64,000 nt of DNA from positions 1,312,001 through 1,376,000 of the forward strand of contig CAWFFN010000005.1 of NCBI GenBank assembly GCA_963815115.1, read 5' to 3'. Position 1 is the first letter of the stretch, and each line of letters opens with the position of its first letter. The DNA is from an uncultured delta proteobacterium. Its GTDB lineage: Bacteria > Desulfobacterota > Binatia > DP-6. The notes under the pieces were generated by a model, which saw nothing but the letters and a program-made list of their open reading frames with translations, did not search any database and had not been told where the DNA came from. Below are positions 21,851 through 46,639 of the stretch, one piece after another. The translations under genes and the position numbers were made by a program.

Positions 21851-23264
21851 TCACGGGTGCGGGCGGATCGCGCCCGCCTGGGGCCAGTGCCCGAGCGCGT
21901 CGTAGGCGGCATATTTGTAGAGCTCGGAGAGGGTCGGATAGTTGAACACCATGCCGATCAAGGTCTCGACGGTGCCCTGGAGCGTCATGACGGCCTGGCC
22001 GATGTGCACGAGCTCCGTCGCGCGCTCGCCGATGCAATGGCAGCCGATGAGCATGCGGCTGGCCGGGTCGAAGACGAGCTTGATCATCCCGTCGCGGTCG
22101 CCCACGATCTGCCCGCGGGCGTTCTGCTGGTAGAAGGCTTTCCCCACCACGGGCACGTAGCCGGCGTCCCGCGCCGCCGATTCGCCGTAGCCGACGCAGG
22201 ACACCTCGGGAATGGTATAGATGCCGTACGGCAGCAGCTCGCCCAGCTGCCGCTTGTAGGGGAAGGCGAAGGCGCGGCAGACGGCGACACGGCCCTGGTC
22301 CATCGAGGTGGAGGCGAGGGCGGGGAAGCCGATGCAGTCTCCCGCGGCGAAGATGTTCGGGACGCTCGTCCGGTAGCTGGCGTCCACTTCCACGTAGTCG
22401 CGCTTGCCGACCTTCACACCGATCGCATCGAGGCCGAGCCCGCGGATGTTGCCGGAACGTCCGGCGGCGAACAGGAGCTGGTCGGACACCACCTCGCCAC
22501 CGCCCTTGAGCGTGGTGACGATGCCGCGACCGGGGACGCGGCGCACCCCCGACCAGGCATCGCCGAGGTGGGCGGTGACGCCGAGCCCGCTCATCGCCTT
22601 GAGGAGTCCCACACCGATGTCGTCGTCGAGGAACGGCAGGATGTGATCGCGCGGCTCGACCAGCTGGACGGGCACGCCGAGGGCCGCGAACATCGTGGCG
22701 TACTCGCAGCCGATGACACCGGCACCGAGGACCGTCAGCGAGCGCGGCATGCGATCGAAGTGCAGCACCGTGTCCGAGTCCTCGATGTCGGGGTCGCTGA
22801 AGTCGATGTCCGCGGGACGGTGGGGCACGGAGCCCGTGGCGATGAGGACCACGTCACCGGTGATGCGCTCCGCGTCCGTCCGGACGGACGACTTCGATCA
22901 CATGGGGATCGAGGAAGCGCGCGCGGCCGGCGACCATGGTGACGCCGTGGCGATCGAGGTTCGCGCGGATGCGCGCCACCTCGGCCCGTCGTACGGCGTC
23001 CTTCCGGCTGAGCAGCCGCGGGGCGGCGAGCTCGGGCGTGATCGCCACGCTGATGCCGTAGAGCTCGCGCTGATGGTAGCCGGAGAGATACACGCTGGTC
23101 TCGCGCAGCGTCTTCGACGGCAGGGTGCCCGTGTGCACCGCTGCGCCTCCGGGCTCGGCCTCGCACTCGACGACGGCCACCTTCTTCCCGAAGTAGGCTG
23201 CCTGCGCGGCGCCCTTCTCGCCGGCGGGGCCGCTGCCGATGACGATCAAGTCGAAGGCGGCGAT
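21851..23264 (-). CDS. sthA: soluble pyridine nucleotide transhydrogenase, frameshifted near 22875
   Basis: FDLIVIGSGPAG, GTLPSKTLRE in one frame; GAGVIGCEYA, GDCIGFPALASTSMDQGR, FNYPTLSE in the next; apparent start is ATC after AGGAGA. Confidence 0.85.
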
Positions 23265-23275
23265 GGTCCCGTCTC

Positions 23276-24199
23276 CTAGAAGGAGTAGCGCAGCGCGACG
23301 ACGACGTGCGCGGCGAGCAGCACGAGCAGGGCCGCCGTGAGCGGAACGTGCAGGAACAGCCAGCCGTGGAGCCAGTGGTGCAGCCGGCGCTGCACGGCGA
23401 GATCGCGGCGCTCGGCCGCGATGTCGGCGAGATCGCGCGCCGCCTCGTGCAGCGATTTGGGAAGCTCGCGGCAGAGCCCTTCGATGGTGCGAGCCGCCAC
23501 CGCGGCGTCCGCGAACGGTCCGCGCCGGCCGTCGCCACGCAGGAACGGGCGCACCATCTCCACGTAGAACCGCCGCAGGGGCTCGGAGCCCTCGGCCGGT
23601 GCGTCGGCGGGTCGGTAGGCCGCGACACGGCGGGCCATCTTGGGATCGGAATGGATGCGCTCGCTCTCCTTCCTCTCCTCTGCCGCCTCGGGAATCGGGC
23701 CGCACACGGCCGCCGCCGTCTCGTAGGCTTCGAGACCGAGCAGGCCGACCACGTGGGGAATCTGCTCGTAGACCGTCTCGCCGGGAGCCCACGCGGACAT
23801 CAAGCGCGGCACGAACTGCTGCAGCGCGAGGCCGTACACGCCCGAGACGATGACGGCGAAGGCGAGGAGGGAGAGGGCGAGGGCGAGCGTGCCCTGGAAG
23901 CGGAAGGCGCTATGGAAGCACACCAGGGGAACGATGAGGAGCCCGAGCCACACGTGTCCCTTGAGCCAGGTCTCGGCGCGCCCGATTCGCCACGTGGGCA
24001 GGCGCTTGCGGACGTTGAGCCCGACCTCGAACAGCATGAGCGTGGCGGCGGCGATGCCGAACCACAGGCCCGGCCCGCGCGACCAGGTCAGCTCGCGTCC
24101 GGCGCCGGGGCGCGAGCGTACGTAGCCGACCGTCGCCGCCGTGCCCAGGACCGCTGCGGCGACGATCCAGCGCCGCTGGCGAGCGTCAATCAGTGCCAT
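23276..24199 (-). CDS. His-rich integral membrane protein, putative heme b subunit
   Basis: About 5-6 hydrophobic segments; His in WLKGHVWLG, CFHS, WLFLHVPL, AHVVV; start overlaps the upstream Fe-S gene stop. Confidence 0.7.
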   Translation of the reverse strand: MALIDARQRRWIVAAAVLGTAATVGYVRSRPGAGRELTWSRGPGLWFGIAAATLMLFEVGLNVRKRLPTWRIGRAETWLKGHVWLGLLIVPLVCFHSAFRFQGTLALALSLLAFAVIVSGVYGLALQQFVPRLMSAWAPGETVYEQIPHVVGLLGLEAYETAAAVCGPIPEAAEERKESERIHSDPKMARRVAAYRPADAPAEGSEPLRRFYVEMVRPFLRGDGRRGPFADAAVAARTIEGLCRELPKSLHEAARDLADIAAERRDLAVQRRLHHWLHGWLFLHVPLTAALLVLLAAHVVVALRYSF

Positions 24200-26445
24200 G
24201 CTTACCTGCGACTCCGATGGTGGTGGCGAAGAACTCGCGAGGGTTCTCCACCCGCACCGCCGCGCCGTGGGGGCATGCCACCACGCAGCTCGGGTCCTGG
24301 TCCGGAGCGAGGTTCTTGCAGAGATCGCAGGCGGTTGCCTTCTTCTCGCGTGCCACGGCCTTGCGAGGTCCCGGGCGCTGGCGATCGTCGCCCTTCACAT
24401 CGAACTCGTGCATGCTGATGTTGCCATACGGGCAGTTGTCCGCGCACACGCCGCAGCCGACGCACCAGTTCTCGATGTATATCTCGAGCGTGTCTCGACG
24501 CCGGATCGATCCCACGGGGCATCCCACCATGCACAGCGGGTCGCGGCACTGTCGGCAGGACGTGGCGACGAGGTAGTTGTCGTAGCGCAGTCCCTCGCGG
24601 ATGAGCCGCGTCACGCCGTCGTGGGCCGTGGCACACGCTTGCACGCAGAGGTCGCAGCGCGTGCAGCGGTCGAGGTCGAGCACGAGGAGGCTCTGGGCCT
24701 CCATGAGCCCTTGCTGGAGAAAATCTTCGAGCTCGACGTTGCTGGTCGTGGCGGCGATCAGGCGGTTCTCCCCGGCGCGCCGCTCGGCCTCGGCGACGAG
24801 CCGGTCCTTCACCGCGGGGAGAGTGCTCGAGCATCGTCCAGAAGTCGTCGGCAGCGATGCGTACGACATCGACATGGTCGACGGCGATGCAGCTCGCGTT
24901 CCGCGGCTTGTCGAGCAGCAGGCCCATCTCCCCGAAGAAACCGCCGCGCCCGTGGTAGGCGCGTACCAGCTCGCCCCCGGGGAGTCCCACGACGACCTTC
25001 ACGAAGCCGAGGCGCACCAGGTAGAAGGCATCGGCCGGGTCGCCCTGCTTGAAGATGGCCTGGCCCGGCTCGAAGCTCTTCAGCGTGACGCGCTTGCCCA
25101 GGTCGTGGATGAAATCGGCGTCGAGGTCCGCCAGGCACCAGACTCCGCGCAGATGCGTCGCGATGGTGCGGTTGCGGTAGCGGGCGTCGACCTGCGCAGC
25201 GAAGGCCTTCGAGCGACGAAGCAGCTGGAGCACGGGACGCAGCATCTCCAGCACGACGGTGTCTTTCGTGGCCGTCACCGTGGCCGAGCGGGGGTAGAAG
25301 TTGAGGCACGTCATCTCTCCGAAGAGCTCACCGGGGGGGAGTCGGGCCACCGGCTCCGCACGCAACAAGTCTACGGGGGCGTCGATCGGAATCGTGGCGC
25401 CTGGGGCCTCGTCGTCATCCTCTCGGCCGAGCATGCTCCTCATCCCGAGCGCGAACCGCCGGAGCATCCCGGGGCCGGTGCGGTTGTGCACGCGGGACTG
25501 GGTCGTGGAGATGCTCACCTCGACCTCGCCCTCGAGGATGAAGAACGCGGTTGAGCCGAAGTCGCCCTCCTTGCAGATGGGCTCGTCGTCCCTGGGGCTC
25601 AGCCGTCGACGGACCACTGCGCCCTCGTTCTTGCCGATGGGACCGAGCGCCTTCTCGAGGAAGCGGGGGGCTATGCCCTCGAATAGCCGGGTGCCGTCGG
25701 GCCAGCGCAGGCCGAGCAGTACCTCCGCGCCGACCGGCTCGCCGGGGATCCTTGCGTCACCGAACCCCTTGTTCGTGAGCGCGCCGGTCGGGCAGGACAC
25801 CATGCACTCCCCGCACGACACGCAGGTCGACTCGCCCATGACCTGGCCCGCGTCGAACGTGATCACGGTGGCGTTGCCCTTGCCGGCGCGTCCGATGACG
25901 TTGTTGTGCGCGACGTCCGTGCACGCGCGCACGCAGCGGTCGCACACGATGCACGCCGCGTGGTCGACGGCGATGTTCGGGTGCGAGTCGTCGTGCGGCG
26001 TCCAGCCTGCGATCGGCGGCCGCTTGGGCGGTCCGGGGCGGTAGCGGTCGGGCAGGGCACCCAGCTCGCGCGCCTTCGCCTCGAGCTCGCAGTCGTTCGT
26101 CTCCCGCTCCCGGGCGCACGGGGAAGGATGATCGGCCATCAGCAGCTCGACGAGCGTGCGCCGGACCCTTTGCACCTCCTCGCTGCCGGTGGAGATCACC
26201 ATACCCGCCGACAGCTCGCGCGCGCAGGCTGCCGCCATGACGTTCTCGCGCGCGAGCTTGCCGTCGCGCGGAACGCGCACCTCGACGCAGCACACCCGGC
26301 AGACGCCGGCCGGCTGCTGCGGTGGCAGGTGGCATACCGTCGGGATCGTGATCCCGAGCGTCTGGGCGGCATCGAAGATCGTCGTGCCGGGGGGGACCTT
26401 CACCACCCGGCCGTCGATCGTCGCCTCGATGGGCTGGTCGCTCAC
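24186..26445 (-). CDS. NuoG/HydA-type N-terminal Fe-S module + 2 cNMP-binding domains + 4x[4Fe-4S] ferredoxin, frameshifted near 24822
   Basis: IPTVCH..GVCRVC..AAC [2Fe-2S]; HPSPC...DCEL; CIVCDRCVRAC, CVSCGECMVSCP; GELFGEM..PRSATV, GGFFGEM..PRNASC; CTRCDLCVQAC, CRQC..PLCMVGCP, CVGCGVCADNCP, CDLC..CVVACP. Confidence 0.85.
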
Positions 26446-28179
26446 GCCGCTCCTCCGGCGGCCGCCAGCGCCGGCCGCATCGGACACGTGCCCGCCGGGC
26501 AGCGGCTTTCCTGGAGGTGGGCGTTCACCTCGTCCTCGAAGTGCTGCATCATGGACGTGACCGGTGCCGGCACCACCTGACCGAGTCCGCAGATCGAGGT
26601 CTGACGGAGCGTCAGGGCGAGGTCGCCGACCACCGCGAGCCCCGCGGCTCCTGCGCGACCCTCGGTCACCGCTTCCAGCAGGTGGACGATCTTCTCCGAG
26701 CCCACGCGGCAGGGCCAGCACTTGCCGCACGACTCGCGCGCGAAGAAGCGCGCGATGTTGAGTGCGAGGTCGACCATGCAGCGGCCCTCCGCCACGGCGA
26801 CGATGGCGCACGATCCCACCATCGAGCCCTGCTTGGCGAGCGCGCCCCACTCCATGGGCGTATCGGCGAGGTGTGCCGGCAAGAAGCCCGACGAGGCCCC
26901 GGACGGCACCACGGCCTTGAGCTTGCGGCCGCCGCGCACCCCGCCGCCCCAGCGCTCGATGATCTCGCGCAGCGTGGTGCCGAAGGGCACCTCGTAGACC
27001 CCGGGCCGCTCGACGTCGCCGCTCAGCCCGACGAACTTGTAGCCTGCGGCGTCCGCCGTGCCGAGGGCGCGATACCAGCTGGCGCCGCGCAGCACGATCG
27101 ACGGCACGTGCGCCAGCGTCTCCACGTTGTTGACGACGGTCGGCATGTCGAAGAGGCCGTGGAAGACCGGGATGGAGGGCTTCAGCCGGGGCTGGCCTCG
27201 CTTCCCCTCGAGCGCCTCGAGCAGCGCCGTCTCCTCGCCGCAGATGTAGCCGCCGGGGCTGACGAAGATCTCGAGATCGAAGGCGAAGTCGGAGCCGAGC
27301 ATCCGCTGGCCGAGCGCACCCTCGGCCTGGGCGAGCTTGATGGCGCGGTGCAGCGCCTCGGCTTCCCGGGCATACTCGTGGCGGATGTAGATGATGCCCT
27401 GGCGCGCGCCGCTCACGACGCCGGCGATGGCCATGCCCTCGATCAGCAGATGCGGCGCCCAGGTGATGATGCCGCGGTCCTTGATGGTGGCGGGCTCGCT
27501 CTCGTCGGCATTGCAGACGATGTATTTCCGCGTCACCTGCTGGTCGCGGACCGTTCGCCACTTCCTCACGGCCAGAAAGCCGGCGCCTCCCATGCCCTTC
27601 AGCTGCGCCGTCTCGAGCTCGGCGAGCACCGCGTCGGCGCCGCTGTCGAGGACGCGGCGCAACGCGGCCCAGCGCTGGTGCTGCCCGTCGGCGTACGGGT
27701 CGGCGTGCTGGATCGCGACTGCGGGCGACGATGCGGCCTCCGGGAGCGCCTCGTTGTCGCGCAGGGCACGGATGAGCACGTCCATCCCACCGGCATCCAG
27801 GCGCCAGTAGGGTGCGTCGTTCACGGTGAGCGCGGGTGCGCCGTCGCACCGTCCGAGACAGGAGACGCGCTCGACGGTCACCTCGCCGGCTGGCCGCGCT
27901 CGCGCCGGCGGCCTCGACGTCGTGGAGGAGCGACTCCGCCCCGCGAAGACGGCACGAGAGATCGGTGCACACCCGGACGTCTCGTGTCGGCGGCGGCGCG
28001 AGGCGGAAGTGCGGGTAGAAGGTCGCGACGCCGTGCAGGCGGTAGATGGGGACGTCCAGCTCCGCGGCCAGGGCACGCAGCGTGGCGGGCGTCAGGTAAT
28101 CGCCGTTCCGGCGTTGCGCCTCCTCGAGCGCCTCCATCAGGTGCGCGTCGGTCAGGCGAGCGTCCGGAGCCTCTACCAT
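26442..28179 (-). CDS. NuoE-NuoF fusion (FMN/NAD(H)-binding diaphorase), frameshifted near 27900
   Basis: VATFYPHF, VCTDLSC, SCLGRCDGAP (NuoE); GMGGAGF, CNADESEP..KDR, YICGEETALL, ESCGKCWPCRVG, SICGLG (NuoF). Confidence 0.88.
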
Positions 28180-28242
28180 CTGATCAGATATCCCTACCCC
28201 GTTTCCTAGAACACCAGCCCGTTCCCTGACAAGTCGATGCTC

Positions 28243-29679
28243 CTAGTTGCCACGAGTGAGTCCCTGGATATCGAAACGTCCATTCATCTCGTCGGGCCCG
28301 ATCGCCGCGTGGTAGGTGTGGCACTCGGAGCAGGCCGTCCCCGCGCTGCCCGGGCGGTGGCATCGTGCGCAGATATCGCGGCCCGGCAGCAGGAGGTCCG
28401 CCGTGTCCCTGCTCTCCTTCGCGTTGGCGTGGCAGGCGAGGCACCCGAGCTGACGATGGACACCATGATCGAAACGGCTCTGGGGGAACCAGCGGATTGG
28501 GACTCGAGTCGGCGCCACGCTCGGGAGGCCCGAGTCGGGGGCGGCGATCATGGTATGGCATTGCTTGCAGTAGCAGGACTCGCTGAAGAGCACGCGCTCG
28601 GCGGTCGCGACTCGCTCGGCGATCCAGGCGTCTCGGTCCGGCGCACTGCGCGCGGTCGCTCCGCCTGGGAACGGCCGCGGCCTGGGCGTGCCGCGAAGTT
28701 CGCCGGGATGTCGGGCGATGTAGTCGGCGTAGAGGCCCTTCAGGAAGGTGTGGACCACGGCAGGCGTATCGTGGGGGACGACGATGCTGGGGGGAAAGCG
28801 ATCGTCGGCGAACGTATTCGGGTGACACGCGGCACAGTGCTGGGCGTAGCGCACGGGCGCCATGTAGGGAGTGGTCTCGGCCGGAGCGAGCTCGGGTTTG
28901 ACCGGCGGTGCCCACCCCGCGGGCAGCTTGCCGAAGAGCGGAGTCGCCATGGACGTCGTCCCCCAGTGGCAGTTTCCGCAAACGAGCTGCACCCGGAAGT
29001 TGTTCTCGGGCCCGACGAAGTTGGCGGTGAGGTGGGTGGCGTGGTTCAGCTTGAGCTGCGCCATGTCGCGGGGCGCTGGCACGTCATCGAGTGCTTCGCG
29101 GTGCGGGTGCTCGGGGTCTCCCGTCCACACGGCGAACTCGGGGTGCAACGCGTTGTCCCGGGTCGCGAAAGCATGGATCTTCTGCGCGTCCCCTCGCAGC
29201 ACGAAGGCCGGCGGGCCCTTGGTGTGCTGCGGCAGGTCGGCGTGGCAATCGGTGCACGCAGCCGTCGAGACGGCGGAGAGGTTCGGGGCGGCGCGATGCT
29301 CGGTGTGGCAGGTCGCACACGGCGGCGTGGAGTCCTGGTTCGGGTGGTGAACCGGCACGTCGTGGCACGTCTGGCACGCCGCGTCGGTGGCACGCCGGAA
29401 ATGCGGCGGCTCGGCGTCGGTGGCGGTCCCGTGTGCGAGGTCGCGAGCCGCGATGTGGCACGCGGCGCAGTCCTCCTCGTACATCGCGTGCGCTCTCGCG
29501 AGACGGCCCGGAGACGCAGGGTGGGCACGTCCGCCGAGCATCGGTGCGATCCAGAGCGCGGCGGCGGCGAGTGCAGCGAGCGTCAGCCACACCCGCAGGC
29601 TGCGAAACCAGTGCCGGCGCAGGTAGTAGTCTCGCTCGATGCGCTGGGCGCGAAGCTTCGCTTTGCGCTGGCGGGCCAT
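28243..29679 (-). CDS. membrane-anchored decaheme c-type cytochrome
   Basis: Ten CxxCH (CAACH, CQTCH, CATCH, CTDCH, CGNCH, CAACH, CKQCH, CLACH, CARCH, CSECH); N-terminal TM; F/LxHxxH distal-His motifs. Confidence 0.9.
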   Translation of the reverse strand: MARQRKAKLRAQRIERDYYLRRHWFRSLRVWLTLAALAAAALWIAPMLGGRAHPASPGRLARAHAMYEEDCAACHIAARDLAHGTATDAEPPHFRRATDAACQTCHDVPVHHPNQDSTPPCATCHTEHRAAPNLSAVSTAACTDCHADLPQHTKGPPAFVLRGDAQKIHAFATRDNALHPEFAVWTGDPEHPHREALDDVPAPRDMAQLKLNHATHLTANFVGPENNFRVQLVCGNCHWGTTSMATPLFGKLPAGWAPPVKPELAPAETTPYMAPVRYAQHCAACHPNTFADDRFPPSIVVPHDTPAVVHTFLKGLYADYIARHPGELRGTPRPRPFPGGATARSAPDRDAWIAERVATAERVLFSESCYCKQCHTMIAAPDSGLPSVAPTRVPIRWFPQSRFDHGVHRQLGCLACHANAKESRDTADLLLPGRDICARCHRPGSAGTACSECHTYHAAIGPDEMNGRFDIQGLTRGN

Positions 29680-29688
29680 GCCGGCTTC

Positions 29689-31442
29689 TCAGCGGGTCGT
29701 CGGGCGGCGGGGAAACTTGACGAAGGGAAGGCGCACGTTCCGGACCTTCACGCGATCGGAGCGCATGTCCGCGGGCGGCCGGAATCCGCGGCCGGCGGCG
29801 AAGGAGATGATGTCGTCCTGATCGACGCCGTCGCCGCTCACCCCGGCACCCCCGATGAGCCTCCGACCTCGGTAGAGGGGTACGCTGCCGGGGAAGATCT
29901 GGATGCCATTGCCGATGCCGGGGATGGTGCTGCACGGCGATACGATCAGTCCCACCGTCAGGAGCATGACAAGGGCGCCCGAACACGAGGTCGATCTGCA
30001 GCCCGTCATTGAAAATGCTGAAGTCGCCGATGGGCACCGAGAAGGGACCGTGGAAGGTCCCGTCGATTCCGTCCGGGAAGAACGGACGGCTGAGGAATCC
30101 GCCTGCCCGGTCGCTGAAGGCGACGCTGCCGTCGAGGTCGATGCCCTCGCGACGCGCCGCTTCAACGAATTGGTCGAGATTGATTGAGGAGTCGGACGCT
30201 GCTGCGCAGTCGAGCACCCGCCTGCGAGCTGCTGAAGAACGCCGCCGTACGGCCCTTCTGCGCTGAGACGTCGAACCCGAACGTCGGGGCGTCCTGCGTG
30301 CGGAAGATGCCGAGTATGTTTCCGGCTCGGTCGACGATCGTGATGTTGACGCGCGCCCGGTCGCCCAGGGGCCGGCGGATGCCGGCTCGCGTGCGGTTCG
30401 CCTGGTGGGCGCCTTGCTTCAGCAAGCGCTGCACCTGCGCGGCCGTGAGCCCCGGCCCGGGCGGCGGATCGATGCTGTCGCGGGGTGGGTAGTAGCGCGG
30501 GTCGACGGTCCCCTTCACGCCACCCAGGGTAGCCGGAACGAATCGGCTTGGCGGCGTATCGATCGGAGCGACGTCCCCCGGACCGAAGGTGACCGTGGCC
30601 GCGGGAACGATCGGTGTCTCATCGAGATTCGAGAACGGGAAGCGGAGGCCGTTCACCAGGATCTGGTCGCCGCGGATGAAGGCCGGTGCCTCGTACCCGC
30701 GCGTCGCCGCCACCGCGATGCGTTCCTCGTCGGTCACCTCGAGATCGGTCGGGTTGCGATCCACCGTGTAGCGCCCGTTCCCCTCCACCCCGACACCACC
30801 GGCGGCTCGCCCATTCTTGTACAGCGGGAGGCCGCCCGGGTCGGCCGAGAGGCCGAGCGGCAGCGTTCCAGCCGGCAGTGGCAGCAGCGGCGGAGGTAGC
30901 GTGACCCCGGGCCGCGGGATGACATCGCCGCACGGCAGCTGGGAGAACTGCACGCCGAAGAGCGGGCCGCTCGACGTGTTCCGGATCAGGGGCGGAAAAT
31001 GTTGCTGGATGATGAAGCCGGCCGTCCGAGTCGTGAACGCGTTGCCCTGGGTGCTGAAGAAAGCTGCCGTGCCCCCCTTCGAGAGCGCCGCCAGCATGGC
31101 GAAGTTGACCTGGCACACCGGTGGCCCGGGCGGCGGTATGTCCGGAAAGCATGGGGGTTGAGGGGGCAGGGTCGTTCCGTCGAGCCCCTGTGGGTTCTTG
31201 GCGCCACCGTCGATCCTGATGGACTGATCCGCCCCGTCCATCACGTGCGTCCCCAGCACGTTCCCCTCGCGGTCGAGCACCGCGATGTTGACGGGTAGTC
31301 CGACGCGCTGCGCCTCGCTCACCGCCTGGCCGATGACGCGCGTGACGTCCGCGGCCGTCAGCGTCTGAGACGCCGCGGGCGCGGTCAGCGCCACGGCACC
31401 GGCCAAGCACGCGCCGGTCAGCGTCGGCAGCCGAGCCCGCAC
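29689..31442 (-). CDS. secreted tandem GlcG/HbpS-like heme-binding protein, frameshifted near 30215 and 29980
   Basis: Signal peptide; IAVLDREGNVLG, GGLPLYKNG..AGGVGV, ITIVDRAGNILG, PGSVPLYRG..IGGAGVSGDGVDQDD; spread across three frames. Confidence 0.8.
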
Positions 31443-31448
31443 GCGGGC

Positions 31449-33332
31449 TTGCTTAGCGAATGTGGACCGAACACGCAAGATTTGGTATGCGCGCCCGACA
31501 TTCACGACGAATCTGGAGACCCAGGTACGAAGCTCGTCCACGCACTGGCGCTGGCCTTCGTCGCACTCGCGCTCGCCGCTCCGGTGTGGGCGGAGCCGCA
31601 GGACGCAGGCAATGCCACGCCGCGGCGCCGCCCCCTGCCTTCGCCGCCCGAGCCTCCCCCCGCCGTCGAGCCGGGGCCGCCCGTGGAGAACACCGAGGAG
31701 CCGACCGGCTACACCGGTCCGCCGGCGCCGCCGGAGACGTTCCCGGCGGAGGAAGAGGTGGACTCCCGGAACCGCTGGCGCGTGGGCTTGCCCTTCTACA
31801 ATCGCCAGCCCGACAACATCCACGAGGCGCCGCTGGTCCGCGGGCAGTGGTGGGATCCGTACGACCAGAACGTGCTGAAGGGCGACTACCCGGTCTTCGG
31901 CACCCAGAACACCTTCTTCGCCTTCACCCTGCGCAGCGACACGCTGCTCGAAGGCCGGCGCCTGCCGACGCCGAGCGACGTCAGCTCGGCCCGGCCCGGG
32001 AGCTACCAGTTCTTCGGCAACGGCTCGTCGCTGCTCTTCAACCAGAACTTTCCGCTCACCGTCGAGCTGTTCGAGGGCAACGCGGGATTCCGCCCCCGCC
32101 AGTGGGAGCTGCGCGCCACGCCGGTCTTCAACGTCAACTACCTCTCCGCGCGCGAGCAGGGTGTCGTCAACATCAATCCGGCGCACGGCACCACGCGGCT
32201 CGACGGCCACGTGGCGATGCAGGAGCTCTTCGGTGACTACGAGCTGGCGACGGTCGGGCCCTACTTCGACACCATCAACGTGCGGGGCGGCATCCAGGGG
32301 TTCAGCAGCGACTTTCGCGGCTTCCTGTTCGTCGACCACCCGGCGGGCCTGAAGCTCTCGGGGACGTACGGCGCGAATCGCACGCAGTGGAACGTCGCCT
32401 ACTTCCGGCCGCTCGACAAGGACACCAACACGGGCCTGAACTCGTTCCACGATCGGGATCAGAACGTCGCGATCGGGACCCTGACGCGCCAGGACTTCCT
32501 CTTTCCGGGCTACTTCGCCGAGCTGATCGGGGCGTTCGACCGCGACAATGCGAGCAAGCGCTTCGACTCGAATGGCTTCCTGGTGCGCCCCGCGGCGATC
32601 GGCGACGCCGCCCCGCACCAGATCACGGTGGGCTATCTCGGCTGGACCGGTGACGGCCACATCGACCGCATCGGCGTCAGCCATGCCTTCTTCCAGGCGA
32701 TCGGACGCGACGACCGCAACCCGATCGCCGGCCGCGCCACCGATGTGAACGCGCAGATGGCCGCGCTCGAGGTGTCGTACGACCGCGACTGGCTGCGTCC
32801 GAAGGCGTCGTTCTTCTGGTCGTCGGGTGACGGCAAGCCGACCGACGGCACGGCGCGGGGCTTCGATTCGATCCTCGACGATCCGCTCTTCGTGGGCGGC
32901 CCGACGAGCTTCTGGGATCGCCAGGGGATCAAGCTCACCGGCACGAACGTCAACCTCACGAACCGCTTCAGCCTCCTGCCGAACCTCCGACCGAGCAACA
33001 TCCAGGGCCAGCAGAACTTCGTGAACCCGGGCATCTTCATCTTCAACGTCGGCCTGTTCGGCCGCCTGACGCCGAAGCTCGCCTTCGAGGCCAACGTCAA
33101 CTACCTGCGCTTCCAGGAGCCGGCGCCGCTCAAGCTGGTGCTGCTCCAGCACCAGATCGGGCACTCCGTCGGGATCGACTACAGCATCGCGTTCACCTAC
33201 CGGCCGCTGCTGATCGACAACATCATCCTGGTCGCTGGCCTCGCGGGGCTGACGCCGCTCGACGGCTTCCGCGACATCTACACCGCCCAGACGCTGTTCC
33301 AGGGATTCCTGAACGTGATCCTGACCTACTGA
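31449..33332 (+). CDS. putative outer-membrane beta-barrel protein (start uncertain)
   Basis: Signal-like [16 protein letters not shown], Pro-rich linker, aromatic amphipathic strands, C-terminal ..LNVILTY beta-signal; TGATG overlap with the next gene. Confidence 0.7.
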
Positions 33333-36300
33333 TGCGCGTGTCCGGACGTCTTCTGATCCTCGCGGTGCTGGGGGCGAGCGTCGCCCGCGCGGCGCCGCCG
33401 CCGCCCGGCCTGTTCGAGAACCAGCCGGCGGCGAGCGTGCCGGCGGGCAGCGAGGGATGCATCACGTGCCACACCGTCTACGATGACAGGGTGCAGCGGA
33501 CGGCGGTCCTCGAGGACTCCGCAACCATGCACCCGAGCGGGACGGTGAACCTCGGTTGCGCGGACTGCCACGGTGGCCACCCCGAGGTCTTCCGGCCGCC
33601 AGGGGCAGAGCCCGAGACGCCGGCATACGAGGACGCGCTACGGCGCGCTCACGTGCTGCCCGCGCATCCGGACGTCTGGAAGACCTCGGCGAACCCCGTG
33701 CGTTCGTACACGGCGCTCAACCGCGAGAGCGCCGACTTCGTGCGCTTCATCAACCCCGGCGACCTTCGCGCCGCCAAGAAGAGCTGCGGCCGCGCGGGCT
33801 GTCATCCTTCCGAGGTGGCCCGGGTGCGCACCAGCATGATGACCCACGGCGCCATGCTGTGGGAGGCGGCGCTCTACAACAACGGGGCGTTTCCGCTGAA
33901 GAACGCCCGTTTCGGCGAGAGCTACGGCCTCGACGGCACGCCCCAGCGCCTGCAGACGATTCCGCAGCCCGCTCCCGACGACACCACGCTCCACGGCATC
34001 CTGCCGTTCCTCGATCCGCTGCCGCGCTTCGAGGTGACGCAGCCGAGCAACATCCTGCGCGTCTTCGAGCGCGGCGACAATCGGCTGAGCATTCGCGGAC
34101 TCGGCACCCTCAACCGCACCGACCCCGTCTTTCAGGGTCTCCAGCGCACGCGGCTTCTCGACCCGATCCTCTCGTTGCTCGGCACCAACGACCATCCCGG
34201 GGACTACCGCTCCAGCGGCTGCACCGCCTGCCATGTCGTCTACGCCAACGACCGCGATCGCTTCCACTCCGGGCCGTACGCCGAGTACGGCAACCTCGGC
34301 ACGGCGGCGACCGCCGATCCCACCATCCCGCACGACGAGCGCGGCCACCCCATCCACCACGTCTTCACCCGCGGCGTCCCGTCGAGCCAGTGCGTCGTGT
34401 GCCACGTGCACCCCGGAACGTCCTTCGCCAATGCCTATCTCGGCTTCACGTGGTGGGACAACGAGACCCACGGCGAGTTCATGTATCCGCGCCGCGAGCA
34501 GCATCCGACACAGGAGCAGGAGTACGAGAGCTACACCGCCAACCCCGAGGGTTCGGCGCTCCGCGGTCTGTGGTCGGACCTCTATCCCGACCAGGCGAAC
34601 CACCTCGGCGAGGTCGGGGGACCGGACTTCCTCGAGCGCACCTGGGAGCTGAACCCCCAGCTTCACCTGACGAAGTTCGCCGACTTCCACGGCCACGGCT
34701 GGATGTTCCGGGCGATCTTCAAGCACGACCGCAAGGGCGATCTGCTCGACGCGCAGGGTGACGTGGTCGATCCGGTCACGCCGGAGAACACCCAGGTCGC
34801 GCTCGAGACTGCGGTGGAGGGCCGGCCGCACGGCGGGGCGGGCATCCCCGTGCACCTGAAGGACATCCACCTCGAGAAGGGCATGCACTGCAGTGACTGC
34901 CACTTCGAGCAGGACGTGCACGGCAACGGAAAGCTGTACGGCGAGACCCGCAACGCGATCGAGGTCGAATGCGTCGACTGCCACGGGACGGTTCGCGGGC
35001 GCGCGACGCTGCACACGTCGGGGCCCGCCGCCCCGCCCGGCGGCACCGACCTCTCGACCAAGGTGACGCCCTTCGGCACGCCGCTCTTCGAACGCCGGGG
35101 AGATCGACTGGTGCAGCACTCCATGGTCGAGCGCGATCGGTCCTGGGAGGTCGTGCAGGTCCTCGACAGCATCACGCCGGGCAATCCGCACTACAGCGAG
35201 CTGTCGCGCCTGGCGAAGACGCTCCGCCGCGACGGCAGGACGTGGGGCGACGTGCCGCCCGACGCGGCCGACGTCCGCGCGGGCGGCGATCCGCCCGCGT
35301 GGGGCACACCGGCTCCCCGCCCGGCGGGCGACCCGGCCAGCACCCTGGCGCACCGGGACGACGACCTCGCCTGCTACACCTGTCACACGTCGTGGATGAC
35401 GAGCTGCTTCGGCTGCCACCTGCCGATGCGGGCCAACTGGAAGCGGCCGCTGCTGCACTACGAGGGCGACGAGGAGCGCAACTGGACGAGCTACAACTAC
35501 CAGGTCCTGCGCGACGACGTCTTCATGCTCGGCCGCGACGGTACGGTGAAGCGGAACCGCATCGCGCCGGTCCGGTCGTCCAGCGCGGTCCTCGTCGGCT
35601 CCCAGAACCTGAACCGCGAGTGGCTCTACTCGCAGCAGCAGACCGTCTCGAGCGAGGGCTACGCCGGGCAGGCGTTCAATCCGCACTTCCCGCACGCGGT
35701 GCGTGGCGGCAACGAGACCAAGCAGTGCGTCGACTGCCACGTGTCCAAGGAGGACGACAACAACGCCTGGATGGCCCAGGTGCTCCTCCAGGGCACCAAC
35801 TTCGTCAACTTCCTCGGGCGCTACGTCTGGGTGGCGGAGGAGGACGAAGGGCTGGAGGCCGTGGTCGTCACCGAGCAGGACGAGCCCCAGGCCGTCATCG
35901 GGAGCCGGCTGCATTCGCTGGCCTATCCCCAGCGCTACCAGGCGCACGTCGCGCGCGGCCGGCTGCTGCCGGGCTCGCGCATGTTCGAGCACCCGGGACA
36001 CGACGTCCTCTCGCTGCCCTGGACGCGGGAGAAGGTGCAGTTCCTGCAGCTCCGTGGCGAATACCTCTACAGCGCCAACGGCCCGGGCGGCGCACGCATC
36101 TTCGACGTCGCCGACATCGACAACAAGAAGAACCCCGAGCGCATCACGACGTCGGTCATCTCGCCGCTCGGCCAGCGCCTCTACGTGCGCACGCGCGACG
36201 CCGCGGCGGTCCTGTCACCGTCGACGCTGGCGGTCGACCCCACGCGACCCCACCTACCGGAGAACGAGGAACGGAAGCCGATCCACACGCTGTACGGGTA

Positions 36301-37219
36301 CCTCTACATCCTCGATCGCGAGGAGGGCCTCGTGGTCACGCCCGCCAAGACGTTGCTCAACGGCGACCCGAACGACAACTTCCTCGAGCGAGCCCGGTTC
36401 CGCGACGGCACGACCGCTTTCAACCCCGGCGGCGTGCTGACGGGTGCAGTGAACGGTCAGGTCGCCGGACGCTACCTGTACGTGTGCGCCCGCGCCGGTC
36501 TCCTGGTCGTCGATATCGACGATCCCCTCGCCCCGCGGGTCGTCGCGACCCTCGCGTCGCCCGCCGTGGACGACCCGCGCGCGGTGGTGATCCAGTTCCG
36601 CTACGCCTTCGTGGCCGATGCGCGCGGCCTCGAGGTGATCGACGTGACCGACCCGACGCGACCCGTGCCCCGCGCCTCCGTCCCGATCGCGGACGCGCGC
36701 GACGTCTACGTTGCCCGGACGTACGCCTACGTGGCGGGCGGCGCGCAGGGTCTGGTGATCGTCGACGTCGAGCAGCCCGAGCATCCTTCCATCGATCAGG
36801 TGTACGATGCGGACAGGCAGATCGACGACACCCGGTCGGTGAAGGTCGGCATGACGAACGCCAGCCTGTTCGCCTACCTCGCGGACGGCAAGAACGGGCT
36901 TCGCGTCGTGCAGCTGATGTCGCCCGACACGCCCGGGTACACCGGTTTCAGCCCGCGGCCACGTCCCGATCTGCCGGGGCTGGGGCTCATCGCCACCTAC
37001 CGCACGCACGGTCCAGCGGTGGCGCTGTCGAAGGGGCTCGACCGCGACCGCGCGGTCGACGAGAGCGGCAACCAGGTGGCGGTCTTCGGGCGGCGTGGGG
37101 CCGGTCCGCTCACCCTCGAGGATCAGCACCGCCTCTACCTCCGGGACGGCGGGGTGTACGCGGTGCCGGTGCTGCGCGACGCGGCCGCGGTGCGGCGGGA
37201 GTTCGGCGCGCCGCGCTAG
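33332..37219 (+). CDS. secreted multiheme cytochrome c with C-terminal LVIVD-repeat beta-propeller
   Basis: Signal peptide; nine CxxCH plus one CX4CH (CGRAGCH); repeats [37 protein letters not shown]. Confidence 0.9.
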
Positions 37220-37710
37220 AGGCGGTGCAGGTTCTTGTCGCGCTCGATCGACAGCTCGGCGGTGGTGCGGCGCAGCCGTTCGACGAGGAACGCGGCGGCG
37301 TTGCGGTAGAGGAGGGCGGCCGCCTGCGGCCGCTTGCGGAGCTCCTCGCGCAGGCTCGCGTACGGCACCCGGATCAGAGAGCAATGGGCGCCGGCGACGG
37401 CCGTGGCCGAGCGCGGCCCGTGGTGCACGTCGAGGAAGGCCATCTCACCGAACTCGTCGCCGACGCCGAGGGTGGTGATGAGCGTCTCGCCGTCGGTCGC
37501 GTCGGAGTCGGCGGCGAGGATGTCCACGGATCCGGCCTCGACGAGGTAGAGCGCATCGGCGATGTCGCCCTGCCGGAAGATGACCTCGCCGGGCGCGTAC
37601 GTCCGCTTCTCGGCGATCGCCTCCATGACCGTCCTGAGCAGGGTCGGCGCGGAGACGTCGTCGCCCATGTGGCTGCGCAGCAGGTAGAAATCCTTCAGCA
37701 GCTCCGCCAT
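37216..37710 (-). CDS. stand-alone cyclic nucleotide-binding protein
   Basis: [29 protein letters not shown]...PRSATA; no HTH. Confidence 0.88.
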
Positions 37711-37756: not shown

Positions 37757-39973
37757 TCACTTCTCCTTCGGCCGGTAGACGCCGTCCCAACCCTCGTCGG
37801 GCGGTGCCGCGCGCAGCTCTCGGATGCGGCGGGCAAGCTCGGCGGCCGGTCCGTCGCAGCCCCACTCCGCCGTGAAACGCGCGACCCGCGCTTCCGCGCC
37901 CTCCCAGTCGCGTGCCCGATAGGCAGCGAGAACCTCGGCGAAGCCGGCGGCGAGTCGCCGCCGGCTGCCATCGGTATCGGCGGCGATCGGGCCGAGCAAC
38001 TCGTAGATGGTCACGGACCGGTGCTTGCCCTTCACCTCGACACGATCGACCTCGCGGCAGACGAAGTCGTCGGCCACCTCGCGCTGCGTCGTCTCCGACA
38101 GCAGGATGCGGGTGCGGTAGGTCTTGTTCAGGCCTTCGAGGCGCGATGCCAGGTTCACGTGGTCACCCATGGCGGTGTAATTGAAGCGCGTCGCCGAGCC
38201 GAAGTTCCCGACCACGACCTCGCCGGTGTCGATGCCGATGCCGATGGCCACGTGGGGCCACCCGAGGGTGCGCCAGCGCTGGTTGAGCGGGGCGAGCGCG
38301 TCCAGCATGTGCAGTGCAGTCTGGCAGGCGCGCTTCGCGTGATCGGGAACCGCGACCGGGGCGCCCCAGAGCGCCATCACCGCGTCACCGATGTACTTGT
38401 CGAGTAGCCCCCGATGCTCGAAGAGGATGTTCGTCATCGCGGTGAGATACTCGTTCATCAGCTTGGCGACCTCCTCGGGCCCTGAGCGCTCCTGGAGTGC
38501 CTCGACGTTCGTCGTGAAGCCGCGGATGTCCGAGAAGAAGACCGTGACCGTGCACCGATCACCACCGAGACGAACGCGCTCGGGCTCGCGCGCGAGCTGC
38601 TCGGTCACCTCGGGGTCGAGGTAGAGCCGGAACGTATCGCGTATCCGTCGCTTCTCGCGCTCCTCGCCGAGGTAGCGCACGATCCCGCCCCCGAGCACCG
38701 CGAACCCGATCGCGCCGACGGGATACAGGGCGCTGAGCACGAGCCCGCGCCTCTCGAAGAGCTGCTGCGTGCCCCATGCGTATGCGATCAGCAGTCCGGC
38801 GCTCGCGCAGAAGCCCCACGCGCCAGGGATGCGCAGGAACGATCCGACGAGCGCCCCGAGGAGGAGCACCACGCCTGCCTCGAGCGGGATGATCCAGCTG
38901 GGCCGGTGCAGGCTCTGGCGCTGCAGGATGTTGTCGATGACGGTCGCGTGAATCTCGACGGCCGGCATCTCGGCGGAGAAGGGAGAGGCTCGCCTGTCGG
39001 AGCCGACGGCGGTGAGCGCGACGAGCACGATCTTCCCGTCCACGGCGCCTTCCGGGAGGCGACCGGCGATCACGTCGGACGCGCGGATGTACCGGAAGGT
39101 CCTCTCCTTGGGGCCGAGGTAGTTGATCCAGAGCTCGCCCGCCTCGTCCACGGGGATCTCGGTGGCGCCGACCCGCAGCGCTGCGACGCCGTAGCCCTCG
39201 ACGGTCATGCTCGCGGCGGCCACTCCCGCGAAGCGGCGGAACGTCTCCAGGCTGAGCGCCCCGGTGTATCGCTTGTCCAGGCGTACCACCATCGGGACGC
39301 GGCGGAAGGCTCCGTCACCATCCGGGAGGAAGTTGTAGTGTCCGGTACCTGCCGCGGCGTTGGCGAGGATGGCGATGTTGCCGTGAAAGGCGGTCGCGGC
39401 GGGGATGATGCCGACGTTCGCACCGGCCGCGACCTGCGCCGCGATCTCCGGGATCGTGGCCGCATCGCCCGTGGTCGGCGTGTCGGGCGCGGTGGGCCCG
39501 AGGTCGAAGAAGTGCGCGAGGACGACGCGCCCGGAAGCGCGCAGCGCGGCGGCCATGCGCGCGTCATTGTACGCGAGGAGCGCCGCCTCGAGCTCGCCGG
39601 CCGACTGCGGCTCGGTCTCGAGCACGTGGTGAAGGGTCTCGTGGTCGACGCTCGGGTCTGGCTGGTCGAACAGGACGTCGAACCCGATCGCTCGGGCGCC
39701 CCCCTCGGTGAGACGGTCTACCAGCGTGGCGAGCCGTGCCCGGGGCCACGGCCAGCGTCCCAGCTCCGCGAGGCTCGCCTCGTCAACGGCGACGATCACG
39801 ACCTCGCCGCTGGCCGGGACCGGTCCCCGGAGTCGGTGGCGCAAGTCGAGTGCCTTCATGTCGTACAGCTCGAGCAGCGGCAGGCCAGCGAGCCGGAGAC
39901 CTGCGAACAGGCAGGCGATGCACAGCACCACTCGCCAGACGGTGAGGCGGGGCAGCCGCCATGTCCGTTTCAC
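37757..39973 (-). CDS. CHASE2-domain class III adenylate cyclase
   Basis: GRWPWPR, IGFDVLF (CHASE2); three TM; FSDIRGFT, DKYIGDAVMA, YTAMGDHVNLASRLEG; Lys/Thr specificity pair points to ATP. Confidence 0.93.
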   Translation of the reverse strand: MKRTWRLPRLTVWRVVLCIACLFAGLRLAGLPLLELYDMKALDLRHRLRGPVPASGEVVIVAVDEASLAELGRWPWPRARLATLVDRLTEGGARAIGFDVLFDQPDPSVDHETLHHVLETEPQSAGELEAALLAYNDARMAAALRASGRVVLAHFFDLGPTAPDTPTTGDAATIPEIAAQVAAGANVGIIPAATAFHGNIAILANAAAGTGHYNFLPDGDGAFRRVPMVVRLDKRYTGALSLETFRRFAGVAAASMTVEGYGVAALRVGATEIPVDEAGELWINYLGPKERTFRYIRASDVIAGRLPEGAVDGKIVLVALTAVGSDRRASPFSAEMPAVEIHATVIDNILQRQSLHRPSWIIPLEAGVVLLLGALVGSFLRIPGAWGFCASAGLLIAYAWGTQQLFERRGLVLSALYPVGAIGFAVLGGGIVRYLGEEREKRRIRDTFRLYLDPEVTEQLAREPERVRLGGDRCTVTVFFSDIRGFTTNVEALQERSGPEEVAKLMNEYLTAMTNILFEHRGLLDKYIGDAVMALWGAPVAVPDHAKRACQTALHMLDALAPLNQRWRTLGWPHVAIGIGIDTGEVVVGNFGSATRFNYTAMGDHVNLASRLEGLNKTYRTRILLSETTQREVADDFVCREVDRVEVKGKHRSVTIYELLGPIAADTDGSRRRLAAGFAEVLAAYRARDWEGAEARVARFTAEWGCDGPAAELARRIRELRAAPPDEGWDGVYRPKEK

Positions 39974-45310: not shown

Positions 45311-46639
45311 TCAGTCGAGCTGCCGTCGCACGGCGGCGACGTCCCGGGCGAAGAGCGCCGGATCATAGGCCGCGGGATCCTGGAGACCCTTGAACACCTG
45401 TTTGATCGCGTCCTGCAGGCCGCCGGTCTCCGGCGGTGCGACCGGACATCCCTGCACGGGCGGCGCCGGCTGCCCGGCTTTCCACTGTATCCAGCTGCGC
45501 GCCGAGGCGAGAGCGGCGAGCGACCACGCGATCTGCTGCGCGCCGCGGAAGCCGGGCGGCGGCTTGCGGGGCGCGGTCAGGTCGCGCAGCACCGCGTTGA
45601 TCTCGTCTTCATGCAGGGCACCGCTCTTGCTGCGCGCCAGCAGGTGGTTGGCCGTTGCCTGCATGGCCGCTGCGACGGGCTCGACCGGCTCACCGCGCTG
45701 GCTCTGCGCGGCCAGCTGCTGGTACCGGGCGATGTTCTGCCGCAGCAGCTCCGCGCGGTCGGCGTCGACCGCGGACGCGAGCGGATCGACTCCCAGCCAG
45801 CGCGACGTGTCGAACGGCGGGTGCCCGCCGACCCCGCGCAGGGGACGTGCTCCGCTCGGGTCGAGCGGATGATGGCAGGTGAAGCAGTCGTACTGCGAGA
45901 ACTCCGGCCAGGCCTCGCGGCGCTGGCGCGTCAGCGCGTCGGCAGCCACCCGCAGCGCGACCGCCTGCCCGGCGGCCCAGGCACCGCCGTCGAACCAGTG
46001 GGCGTTGTCGGGGTGCAGCTTCCAGTGCGGCGGCATGTTGGCGGCGAACGAGTCCAGCTCGAAGACCAGCGCCGGGTGCCCGGCGGCGATCATGGCGTGG
46101 TCGACGGTCTTGCGGGCGCTCCCGAGGTGGCATTCGAGACAGGTGCCGGCGGCCACGGCGGGCTCCGTGGTGTCGGTCATGTGGAGCTGCCTCTTCCGCT
46201 CCTCGATCCCTGGCTGCTCGTGCCAACCCTTCTCCGTGTGCTCCTTGATCCACGATCCGGCCGGGCCGTGGCACGCCTCGCAGCTGACGCCGTCGGCCAG
46301 GCGCGGGCCGTCGGGCTTCTCCGGCACGTTGAGCGCGTGGCAGTCGAGGCACTTGTCCGCCTTCCACGGCTTTTCGGTCATGCCCAGACCGCGGGCGATG
46401 CTCAGCGAACGCGGCTCGTGCAGCACCGCATAGCTCGAGGCGTGGCGATCGCAGCTCCGCCACGTGGCGTACTCGTTCTGGAGGACCCAACGGCTGTCGG
46501 CGCGCGCCGTGACGCTGCCGTGGCAGTTGGGTGACGCGCACGATCCGGCCCCTCGATAGTCGCCGTCGGGCACGACCTCGCCGCCGGCGGCCGCGGCAGT
46601 CGCGAGACATGCCACAACGAGGGTCACGCCCAGCCTCAT
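45311..46639 (-). CDS. multiheme cytochrome, c554-like family
   Basis: Signal peptide; CASPNCH (CX4CH), CLDCH, GVSCEACHGP, CLECH, CFTCH; DHAMIAAGHP. Confidence 0.88.
   Translation of the reverse strand: MRLGVTLVVACLATAAAAGGEVVPDGDYRGAGSCASPNCHGSVTARADSRWVLQNEYATWRSCDRHASSYAVLHEPRSLSIARGLGMTEKPWKADKCLDCHALNVPEKPDGPRLADGVSCEACHGPAGSWIKEHTEKGWHEQPGIEERKRQLHMTDTTEPAVAAGTCLECHLGSARKTVDHAMIAAGHPALVFELDSFAANMPPHWKLHPDNAHWFDGGAWAAGQAVALRVAADALTRQRREAWPEFSQYDCFTCHHPLDPSGARPLRGVGGHPPFDTSRWLGVDPLASAVDADRAELLRQNIARYQQLAAQSQRGEPVEPVAAAMQATANHLLARSKSGALHEDEINAVLRDLTAPRKPPPGFRGAQQIAWSLAALASARSWIQWKAGQPAPPVQGCPVAPPETGGLQDAIKQVFKGLQDPAAYDPALFARDVAAVRRQLD

Follow-up and report, generated by a model that had tools for sequence, protein, structure and literature searches.

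A long-form PtdE-like iron-sulfur protein with tandem cyclic nucleotide-binding domains, a candidate link between NADH oxidation and a periplasmic decahaem cytochrome

The window analyzed here is a stretch of 64,000 nucleotides (nt) from the genome of an uncultured delta proteobacterium (Desulfobacterota, Binatia, DP-6; GenBank assembly GCA_963815115.1, contig CAWFFN010000005.1, positions 1,312,001 to 1,376,000). The gene under study, herein referred to as the target, lies on its minus strand and encodes an iron-sulfur (Fe-S) protein with two domains for the binding of cyclic nucleoside monophosphates (cNMPs). We put the probability at about 50% that this protein is the cytoplasmic Fe-S subunit of a four-part conduit that leads from reduced nicotinamide adenine dinucleotide (NADH) to a periplasmic decahaem cytochrome and is regulated by cyclic AMP (cAMP) or cyclic GMP (cGMP). 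NADH is the likely electron donor because the gene is partnered with a NuoE-NuoF gene and the protein has a HoxU-like N-terminal module (the head); the periplasm is the likely destination because the other two partners are a membrane protein and a decahaem cytochrome. By description only, the target corresponds to a long form of PtdE, a protein of the putative ptdABCDEFG operon named in a preprint (10.1101/2023.11.21.568154).

The target and its parts are as follows.

24186..26445, minus strand: target gene, long-form PtdE-like Fe-S protein, in two frames, about 750 amino acids (aa) if joined (open reading frames, Pfam, identity to the homologue P0002)
26224..26334, minus strand: [2Fe-2S] motif with four Cys, in a Fer2_4 domain (Pfam and motif location)
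26089..26130, minus strand: His site HxxxCx8C (HPSPC...DC), with NuoG/HoxU spacing but without the second Cys (motif location)
25792..25953, minus strand: ferredoxin-like domain with two CxxCxxCxxxC motifs, 2x[4Fe-4S] (Pfam and motif location)
24823..25662, minus strand: tandem cNMP-binding domains (Pfam cNMP_binding and column counts)
25323-25282, minus strand: phosphate-binding cassette of cNMP domain 1, FGEM..PRSA (motif location)
24936-24895, minus strand: phosphate-binding cassette of cNMP domain 2, FGEM..PRNA (motif location)
24273..24665, minus strand: four Cys groups (16 Cys) of a four-cluster ferredoxin domain of the DmsB/NarH type (Pfam, NCBIfam, motif location)
24817..24826, minus strand: frame break, one extra base (tblastn frames, frame model, DNA alignment with the genome of locus L041)

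The start codon is a GTG at 26445, which overlaps the TGA of the upstream nuoEF gene, and the stop codon is at 24188-24186. In the first 542 residues, Pfam detects Fer2_4 with an E-value (E) of 1.2e-14 (54.6 bits, cut-off 22.8), together with Fer4_7, Fer4, and Fer4_Nqo3 at E of about 1e-7 (30.8 bits for Fer4_7 and 29.8 bits for Fer4_Nqo3, cut-off 27). The NADH-G_4Fe-4S_3 match (E 8.7e-4, 19.2 bits) stays under its cut-off of 27, and the pattern of a His-ligated [4Fe-4S] cluster, HxxxCxxCxxxxxC, is absent from the protein: its His site has the NuoG spacing, with the His followed by Cys at +4 and +13, and lacks the Cys at +7. The cNMP_binding family (PF00027) was found over three stretches (E 4.1e-36, 123.3 bits, cut-off 27.5), and column counts across the family mark a conserved insertion of about 55 residues in cNMP domain 1. 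In the last 209 residues Pfam finds Fer4-type families only (Fer4_7, Fer4_9, and related ones, E 1.7e-13 and weaker). Thus, a single polypeptide holds seven or eight cluster sites. No molybdopterin-type or H-cluster C-terminal domain was found in the target by Pfam. All the motifs listed in the original prediction, namely the [2Fe-2S] site, the His variant, the two [4Fe-4S] motifs, the two cNMP pockets, and the four-cluster domain, were recovered by Pfam and motif location at the places it had given.

In NCBIfam, the head scores 168-184 bits with FeFe_hydrog_A6, 131-157 with HoxU, and 107-121 with NuoG, all far under the cut-offs (168.5 against 765, 130.7 against 333, and 106.6 against 470, respectively). 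Judged by these scores, the head is nearer to HydA and HoxU than to NuoG. Among solved structures, its best match by sequence is to HydA1 from a bifurcating hydrogenase (7q4v_A; E 1e-54 at profile positions 4-211), and the other solved relatives are FdsA (6tg9_A) and HoxU (5xf9_B, E 1e-33). The four-cluster domain has domain-level NCBIfam matches to DmsB, HydN, FDH3 beta, DsrO, and ArrB (E 1e-8 to 1e-13) and falls outside every named equivalog, the best two being PRK09898 (49 against 213) and DmsB (44.7 against 214.1). No solved structure with the whole architecture was found; the matches are limited to the first 215 positions or so and to the cNMP domains.

A family search with the first 542 residues of the target as query scored 8000 candidates, of which 4626 matched at E<=0.001. 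Among the 120 best matches, 117 are 684-758 aa long, intact and fused, and every one of the 120 listed carries PF00027 together with Fer4-type families. The best one, P0002 (752 aa), shares 78% identity with the target in its residues 1-548 and 84% in residues 543-752. Databases name these proteins "cyclic nucleotide-binding domain-containing protein" or, at JGI, "CRP-like cAMP-binding protein". A stand-alone ferredoxin gene as the norm was ruled out: the matches of 114-366 aa to the ferredoxin part come mostly from 1-3 kb contigs, have no uniform length, are mostly fragments at contig ends, and many include PF00027.

Conservation was counted in an alignment of 67 full-length homologues. The four Cys of the [2Fe-2S] site, the His and two Cys of the His site, and the eight ferredoxin-like Cys are invariant in 67/67. 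So are all but one of the 16 Cys in the four-cluster domain; among the 31 Fe-S ligand positions examined, only the second Cys of group IV varies (C 53, S 13, N 1). The position of the missing Cys in the His site is occupied by Q in 59, H in 5, and E in 3 homologues, and the shortage of one Cys is consequently a family trait. In both phosphate-binding cassettes G, E, R, and A are invariant in 67/67. The residue after the cassette Arg is S in all 67 homologues in domain 1; in domain 2 it is T in 47, N in 5, V in 5, S in 4, and M in 3, with N in the window copy. Among 39 diverged representatives, domain 1 keeps G in 39, E in 38, and R in 35, and domain 2 keeps G in 39, E in 37, and R in 28. An additional Fe-S cluster formed by the invariant Cys 293, 380, and 519 (P0002 numbering) was also considered and ruled out: at these positions, 8-12 of the 39 diverged representatives have F, L, V, or A instead, as would be expected of the buried core.

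With the cNMP tandem alone as query, 147 clusters at 50% identity were found at E<=1e-30. The family also contains short forms of 472-554 aa, which consist of the tandem and the four-cluster domain only and have no N-terminal Fe-S module. Since these forms lack the head, and since only about 12-17 of the 39 diverged representatives have one, the comparison of sequences indicates that the cNMP tandem plus the four-cluster domain is the invariant core of the family and that the HoxU-like head is an add-on. The architecture proposed in the original prediction is thus real and family-wide, and the homologues do not bear out the refuting case of a separate ferredoxin gene, since their ferredoxin part is fused; their cassettes are canonical. 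The further claim that sensors and ferredoxin replaced a catalytic domain is not supported, and misfits the modular make-up of a family with an optional head. The placement of the sensors in the middle of the chain applies to the long forms, where they stand between Fe-S modules, and not to the short forms, where the tandem is N-terminal.

The target is part of a tightly packed gene cluster on the minus strand, with the order small HbpS-like gene, decahaem cytochrome, nuoEF, target, membrane protein, and sthA-like gene. The genes around the target in this cluster are as follows.

26442..28179, minus strand: NuoE-NuoF fusion gene with a thioredoxin-like [2Fe-2S] domain, a site for flavin mononucleotide (FMN) and NADH, and the N3 cluster; broken frame (Pfam, NCBIfam)
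23276..24199, minus strand: 307-aa PtdF-like membrane protein, putative dihaem cytochrome b; its start overlaps the target stop
28243..29679, minus strand: membrane-anchored decahaem cytochrome c, PtdG-like, with 10 CxxCH motifs and one N-terminal transmembrane helix (Pfam)
21851..23267, minus strand: SthA-like flavoprotein gene for flavin adenine dinucleotide (FAD) and NAD(P)H; broken frame (Pfam)
29689..30217, minus strand: small HbpS-like gene upstream of the cytochrome (frame model, comparison with six other loci)

The neighborhood of the family was counted in 36 loci. The titles of their metagenome-assembled genomes (MAGs) assign 22 to Acidobacteriota, 10 to Planctomycetota, 3 to Verrucomicrobiota, and 1 to Methylomirabilota, mainly from soil. 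The target homologue is followed by a match to the membrane protein in 34/36 loci and by one to the cytochrome in 32/36. Of the 32 cytochrome sequences extracted, 27 contain ten CxxCH motifs; the remaining five are fragments 158-410 aa long. NuoF is encoded directly upstream in 24 of the 26 long-form loci (for one of the other two, only 148 nt are available on that side) and in none of the seven short-form loci with about 7 kb of upstream sequence. Four of the loci (L005, L007, L012, and L037, labeled Verrucomicrobiia, Methylomirabilota, Acidobacteriota, and Verrucomicrobiia, respectively) share a near-identical gene layout and coordinates around the cluster. Because contigs with different labels are so alike, some of the phylum labels may stem from binning and overstate the true breadth.

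In the proposed pathway, NADH would be oxidized at the FMN of NuoF and the electrons would pass along the Fe-S clusters into the four-cluster domain, which would dock on the cytoplasmic face of the dihaem b membrane protein. Its two b haems would take the electrons across the membrane to the periplasmic decahaem cytochrome, and from there they would reach further multihaem proteins encoded nearby. Such an outward flow would be downhill and aided by the membrane potential, and would conserve no energy. Binding of cAMP or cGMP would change the packing of the Fe-S modules or of the membrane partner and so turn the flow on or off. In the long forms the head possibly re-packs against the four-cluster domain; in the short forms it is possibly the four-cluster domain that re-packs against the donor or the membrane partner. 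A fast switch would make sense here, because the outward flow dissipates membrane potential without conserving energy.

The chain could also run in reverse, from periplasmic or extracellular electrons through the multihaem cytochromes to the reduction of NAD+ to NADH. Modules of the NuoEF/HoxEFU type are reversible in other enzymes. The ptd cluster, moreover, has been likened to the porin-cytochrome complexes of metal reduction and oxidation in the preprint (10.1101/2023.11.21.568154). Such a flow would nevertheless be uphill twice, since the electrons would have to cross from the positive side of the membrane to the negative one and also be raised to the potential of NAD+/NADH. No subunit that pumps ions or is linked to quinone was found in the cluster; the membrane protein has 4-5 helices, and nothing further was found next to it. 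On this reasoning, we regard the reverse direction as very unlikely and retain the outward conduit.

The assignment of the membrane protein, which is annotated as "hypothetical" everywhere, follows from its pattern of His residues. H82, H96, H284, and H298 are invariant in 33/33 and in 40/40 of its homologues. They form two pairs, each 14 residues apart, within or at the ends of the predicted helices 77-95 and 285-303. Hydropathy predicts transmembrane helices at 43-61, 77-95, 103-121, and 285-303, with a loop of 163 residues between the last two, and the topology comprises 4-5 helices in total. We infer a dihaem b protein from this pattern. Its contact with the target was approached by a docking prediction of the four-cluster domain together with the membrane protein, in which the score mark used is reached by 116/157 solved complexes and 2/215 mismatched pairs. 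The median score was 0.55 (runs of 0.53, 0.55, and 0.60), the best of three controls scored 0.00, the runs share at least 89% of their contacts, and the predicted local distance difference test (pLDDT) value of the partner is at least 80.

Several results weigh against the regulated conduit. As to the membrane protein, the Pfam matches are weak and partial, with DUF4405 in 17/40 homologues, Ferric_reduct in 11/40, and Ni_hydr_CYTB in 8/40, all under the cut-offs; for Ferric_reduct, the window protein scores 16.5 bits against a cut-off of 28, and the 11 members match at E<=1. Homology to MsrQ and YodB of Escherichia coli was not detected by hhalign (probability 0.3-0.5%), and no relevant solved structure was matched by the sequence profile of the membrane protein. 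The docking score falls in the band of 0.60 or under, which holds 18 of the 157 solved complexes and also both of the mismatched pairs that pass, so that the prediction gives weak support to a contact between the four-cluster domain and the membrane protein. In the His site, the fourth ligand is missing in 67/67 homologues, and the cluster there may be absent or unusual. The Arg of the second cNMP pocket is replaced in 11 of the 39 diverged representatives. The short forms carry the tandem at the N-terminus, with no Fe-S module ahead of it and no NuoEF nearby, and a gate in the middle of the chain is impossible in them. Finally, the target gene is not one intact frame in the source genome.

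Regulation of the target by cAMP or cGMP is plausible, on the basis of the conserved phosphate- and ribose-contacting residues, a neighboring cyclase gene, and the recurrence of cNMP-related genes in the window. The phosphate-binding cassette of cNMP-binding domains has the motif G-E...R-[ST]-A. Domain 1 of the target agrees with it (FGEM..PRSA); in domain 2, G, E, R, and A are present and the window copy has N after R. A gene for an adenylate/guanylate cyclase with a CHASE2 domain lies 11 kb from the target (37757..39973, minus strand), and a gene for a small cNMP-binding protein adjoins it (37216-39973 for the pair, minus strand). In the genome as a whole, 33 matches to the PF00211 cyclase domain were found. 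The window also encodes, at 46777-48237 on the minus strand, an MscS-type channel with a C-terminal cNMP domain.

An alternative to regulation is the same conduit without a gate, in which the cNMP folds serve as a scaffold, as a dimerization module, or as sensors of other ligands, and the flow is constitutive or controlled at transcription. The N-terminal position of the tandem in the short forms, not between Fe-S modules, and the loss of the second-pocket Arg in the diverged representatives are in its favor. Domains of this fold in the CRP/FNR family are, in addition, able to bind ligands other than cyclic nucleotides. A mere scaffold, on the other hand, is not expected to conserve exactly the residues that contact phosphate and ribose. 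The cassette residues are retained in both domains by all the full-length homologues, and those of domain 1 by most of the diverged representatives; the cyclase gene and other cNMP-binding proteins are present within the same window. An ungated conduit is accordingly judged unlikely. The specific version of the regulated conduit, a respiratory wire gated by a second messenger, in which cAMP or cGMP bound to the tandem, between the Fe-S modules or ahead of them, would physically couple or uncouple the NuoEF/HoxU module from the dihaem-decahaem part, is a tentative proposal with the odds against it. An "electron switch", as the original prediction called it, is overall plausible from the sequences, and the observation behind it is real.

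A further possibility is that the protein is a redox sensor rather than a wire: the Fe-S/haem chain would report the periplasmic or the NADH state, the tandem would integrate a second signal, and the regulatory output would be of an unspecified kind. Many Fe-S and cNMP-fold proteins are regulators, and the JGI name of the family points the same way. Against this, Pfam detected no output domain, such as one for DNA binding or a kinase, in the window protein, P0002, or P0007. Sensing would also need far less than seven to eight clusters together with a flavin module, a dihaem protein, and ten c-type haems. This possibility is the most improbable of those considered, and an electron-carrying role for the protein is preferred.

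The copy of the target in the window is split over two frames, as the original prediction implied when it spoke of a frame-repaired protein. With an intact homologue as tblastn query, the frame changes between 24817 and 24821, and a codon-position hidden Markov model trained on the genome places the switch at 24821/24823. In a DNA alignment with the intact copy of the same-family genome (L041), the window target has one extra base, outside any long homopolymer. A programmed frameshift was ruled out because the homologues are read in a single frame. Breaks of the +1 type were found in four of six consecutive genes (21851-30217, minus strand): the sthA-like gene, the target, nuoEF, and the small HbpS-like gene. 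The break in the NuoE-NuoF gene is at about 27893-27910 (tblastn frames, frame model) and that in the SthA-like gene at 22867-22875 (tblastn frames), where the contig of one relative (run X4) lacks one base at 22874. The small HbpS-like gene is broken at about 29975 and is single-frame in six other loci. Genome-wide, 165 candidate breaks were counted in 6.89 Mb, or about 24 per Mb, by a crude detector with known false calls in both directions; 123 of them, against 42, are of the +1 type, and there are 15 clusters of three or more within 10 kb. The window copy retains 165/165 invariant and 124/139 near-invariant columns of the family alignment. Since all the invariant columns are kept, the break in the target either reflects a consensus error or arose very recently.

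Pieces identical to the window occur in four soil-metagenome runs, and none of the contigs listed crosses any of the four break sites. A low-depth contig of one soil run (X2) lacks one base at 24784; the extra base in the target lies about 35 nt upstream of this site. If this contig also has the extra base, the frame would be restored after an out-of-frame patch of 12 codons.

The distribution of the gene in the host lineage also bears on the state of this copy. The target gene was not found in any of the four other genomes of the genus examined. A full-length copy was found in one of 30 relatives (G008, 69% identity, intact), and the cNMP-tandem query had no match at E<=1e-30 in 300 other genomes of the phylum. 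Based on these searches, the cluster is patchy in the lineage. Four genomes of the same class (G021, G026, G027, and G007, loci L042-L045) encode proteins that are only 32-37% identical to the target, as measured over the cNMP and four-cluster part; in two of these loci a weak match to the membrane protein was found just downstream. The pairing of the target with the membrane protein may thus extend to more distant relatives.

The cluster in the window could be a decaying, non-functional remnant, in which case the breaks would be genuine mutations and the lineage would be losing a cluster it had gained by horizontal transfer. The density of breaks, four in six consecutive genes against the genome-wide frequency by the same detector, fits this possibility, as do the scarcity of the gene in the genus, among the relatives, and in the phylum, and the position of the extra base outside a long homopolymer. 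On the other hand, with all the invariant columns retained, an inactivation, if there was one, must be very recent. The four local breaks all belong to the +1 type, and the genome-wide bias to this type and the clustering of candidates look like a systematic consensus error. Additionally, an assembly of 12 contigs and split copies of relatives on long contigs fit the pattern of long-read errors, and none of the listed short-read contigs crosses a break site. We consider an assembly consensus error to be somewhat the more probable cause of the breaks; decay following very recent inactivation is a serious possibility with a chance a little short of even. It concerns the state of the window copy, not the nature of the family, and is compatible with the regulated conduit proposed above.

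Further genes in the window with a possible relation to the pathway are as follows.

45329..46528, minus strand: cytochrome c554-like tetrahaem protein, possible PtdD; beside the cluster in 23/36 loci
30267-31430, minus strand: HbpS-like protein; recurs in 6 loci
31527-33329, plus strand: 601-aa secreted protein with no Pfam family, beta-barrel-like by eye only; recurs in 6 loci
33353-37210, plus strand: 1286-aa LVIVD-repeat protein with nine CxxCH motifs; recurs in 7 loci

The last three genes are found again next to the cluster in 6-7 other loci, which are mostly from Planctomycetota, and their products may form the outer part of the same pathway. In a preprint on Tenderiales, LVIVD proteins are mentioned only as surface proteins. 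Outside this region, the window contains a tmRNA gene (51908-52260, plus strand; tag peptide ADNNYALAA) and a gene for SmpB (6276-6731, plus strand). Downstream of the tmRNA gene, the G+C content falls to 0.66-0.67 and a gene with PLD, ResIII helicase, and DUF3427 domains was found at 55537-58473 on the minus strand; the region past the tmRNA gene may be an integrated element.

The family is large, with 147 clusters by the tandem and thousands of long-form matches, and has generic annotation only. The cluster is not wholly new, since ptd has already been named, in its short form, in one preprint. The NuoEF partner of the long form adds a testable electron donor to clusters of this type. If the tandem controls the flow, second-messenger signaling would be linked directly to electron transport, and an experimental handle would be available on ptd-type clusters, which occur in Planctomycetota and soil Acidobacteriota and, as the preprint reports, in bacteria of marine oxygen-deficient zones. 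Should the gated wire prove true, a soil bacterium would have an energy-dissipating outlet for electrons to the periplasm that it could open or shut in seconds, and the target would be the first component of an electron-transport chain under direct cyclic-nucleotide control.

Among known systems, the closest is the ptd cluster (10.1101/2023.11.21.568154). The preprint presents the operon as previously undescribed, with a function that "remains completely unknown". It lists PtdA as a pentahaem protein, PtdB as a porin, PtdC as a FAD/NAD(P) oxidoreductase, PtdD as a tetrahaem protein, PtdE as a cyclic nucleotide-binding protein with 4Fe-4S clusters, PtdF as a ferric-reductase-like transmembrane protein, and PtdG as a periplasmic decahaem protein. 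The clusters were reported there from marine or saline MAGs, including those of bacteria from marine oxygen-deficient zones. In literature searches, the family was not found apart from this preprint, and no other paper with the ptd name was found; none of the terms searched occurs in a survey of Desulfuromonadia cytochromes (PMC11492766). By description, the target, the membrane protein, and the decahaem cytochrome match the order PtdE-PtdF-PtdG in 32-34 of the 36 loci, and the SthA-like gene is a possible PtdC. In contrast to PtdE as presented in the accessible text of the preprint, the window protein adds a HoxU/HydA-like head and a NuoE-NuoF neighbor, neither of which is mentioned there. 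The loci analyzed here come mainly from soil MAGs of Acidobacteriota and Planctomycetota, unlike the marine or saline ones given in that text, and a pentahaem PtdA and an annotated porin PtdB were not identified in the window.

The head resembles HoxU, the N-terminus of HydA, FdsA, and NuoG in having a [2Fe-2S] site, a His site, and 2x[4Fe-4S] in the same order and spacing, and in being partnered with subunits of the NuoE/NuoF type. It differs from them in the absence of a hydrogenase, molybdopterin, or NuoG C-terminal domain from the target, in a His site of only one His and two Cys, and in scores far under the NCBIfam cut-offs. The other end of the protein is similar to DmsB, NarH, FdnH, and HybA: its four Cys groups have the typical spacing, and the adjacent gene encodes a membrane protein with two His pairs, as for NarI and FdnI. 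In the target, however, this domain is fused to a module on the cytoplasmic NADH side and serves no molybdoenzyme; its membrane partner is not significantly similar to any known cytochrome b, and the proposed direction is outward to c-type haems.

The overall logic is that of NOX, FRE, and MsrQ, in which electrons go from NAD(P)H in the cytoplasm through a flavin and two b haems within the membrane to an acceptor on the outside. Weak Ferric_reduct matches in 11/40 homologues and the ferric-reductase label that the preprint uses for PtdF are in line with this likeness. The differences are a wire of 7-8 Fe-S clusters between flavin and haem and a membrane protein with 4-5 helices and the 163-residue loop, for which hhalign to E. 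coli MsrQ gives a probability of 0.3%. As to regulation, the mycobacterial acetyltransferase Pat likewise has a cNMP domain fused to an enzyme as an allosteric switch, and the NCBIfam model of Pat matches the second cNMP domain of the target at E 1e-15. Unlike in Pat, the regulated part of the target would be an electron-transfer chain, a case of which no example was found in the literature searches.

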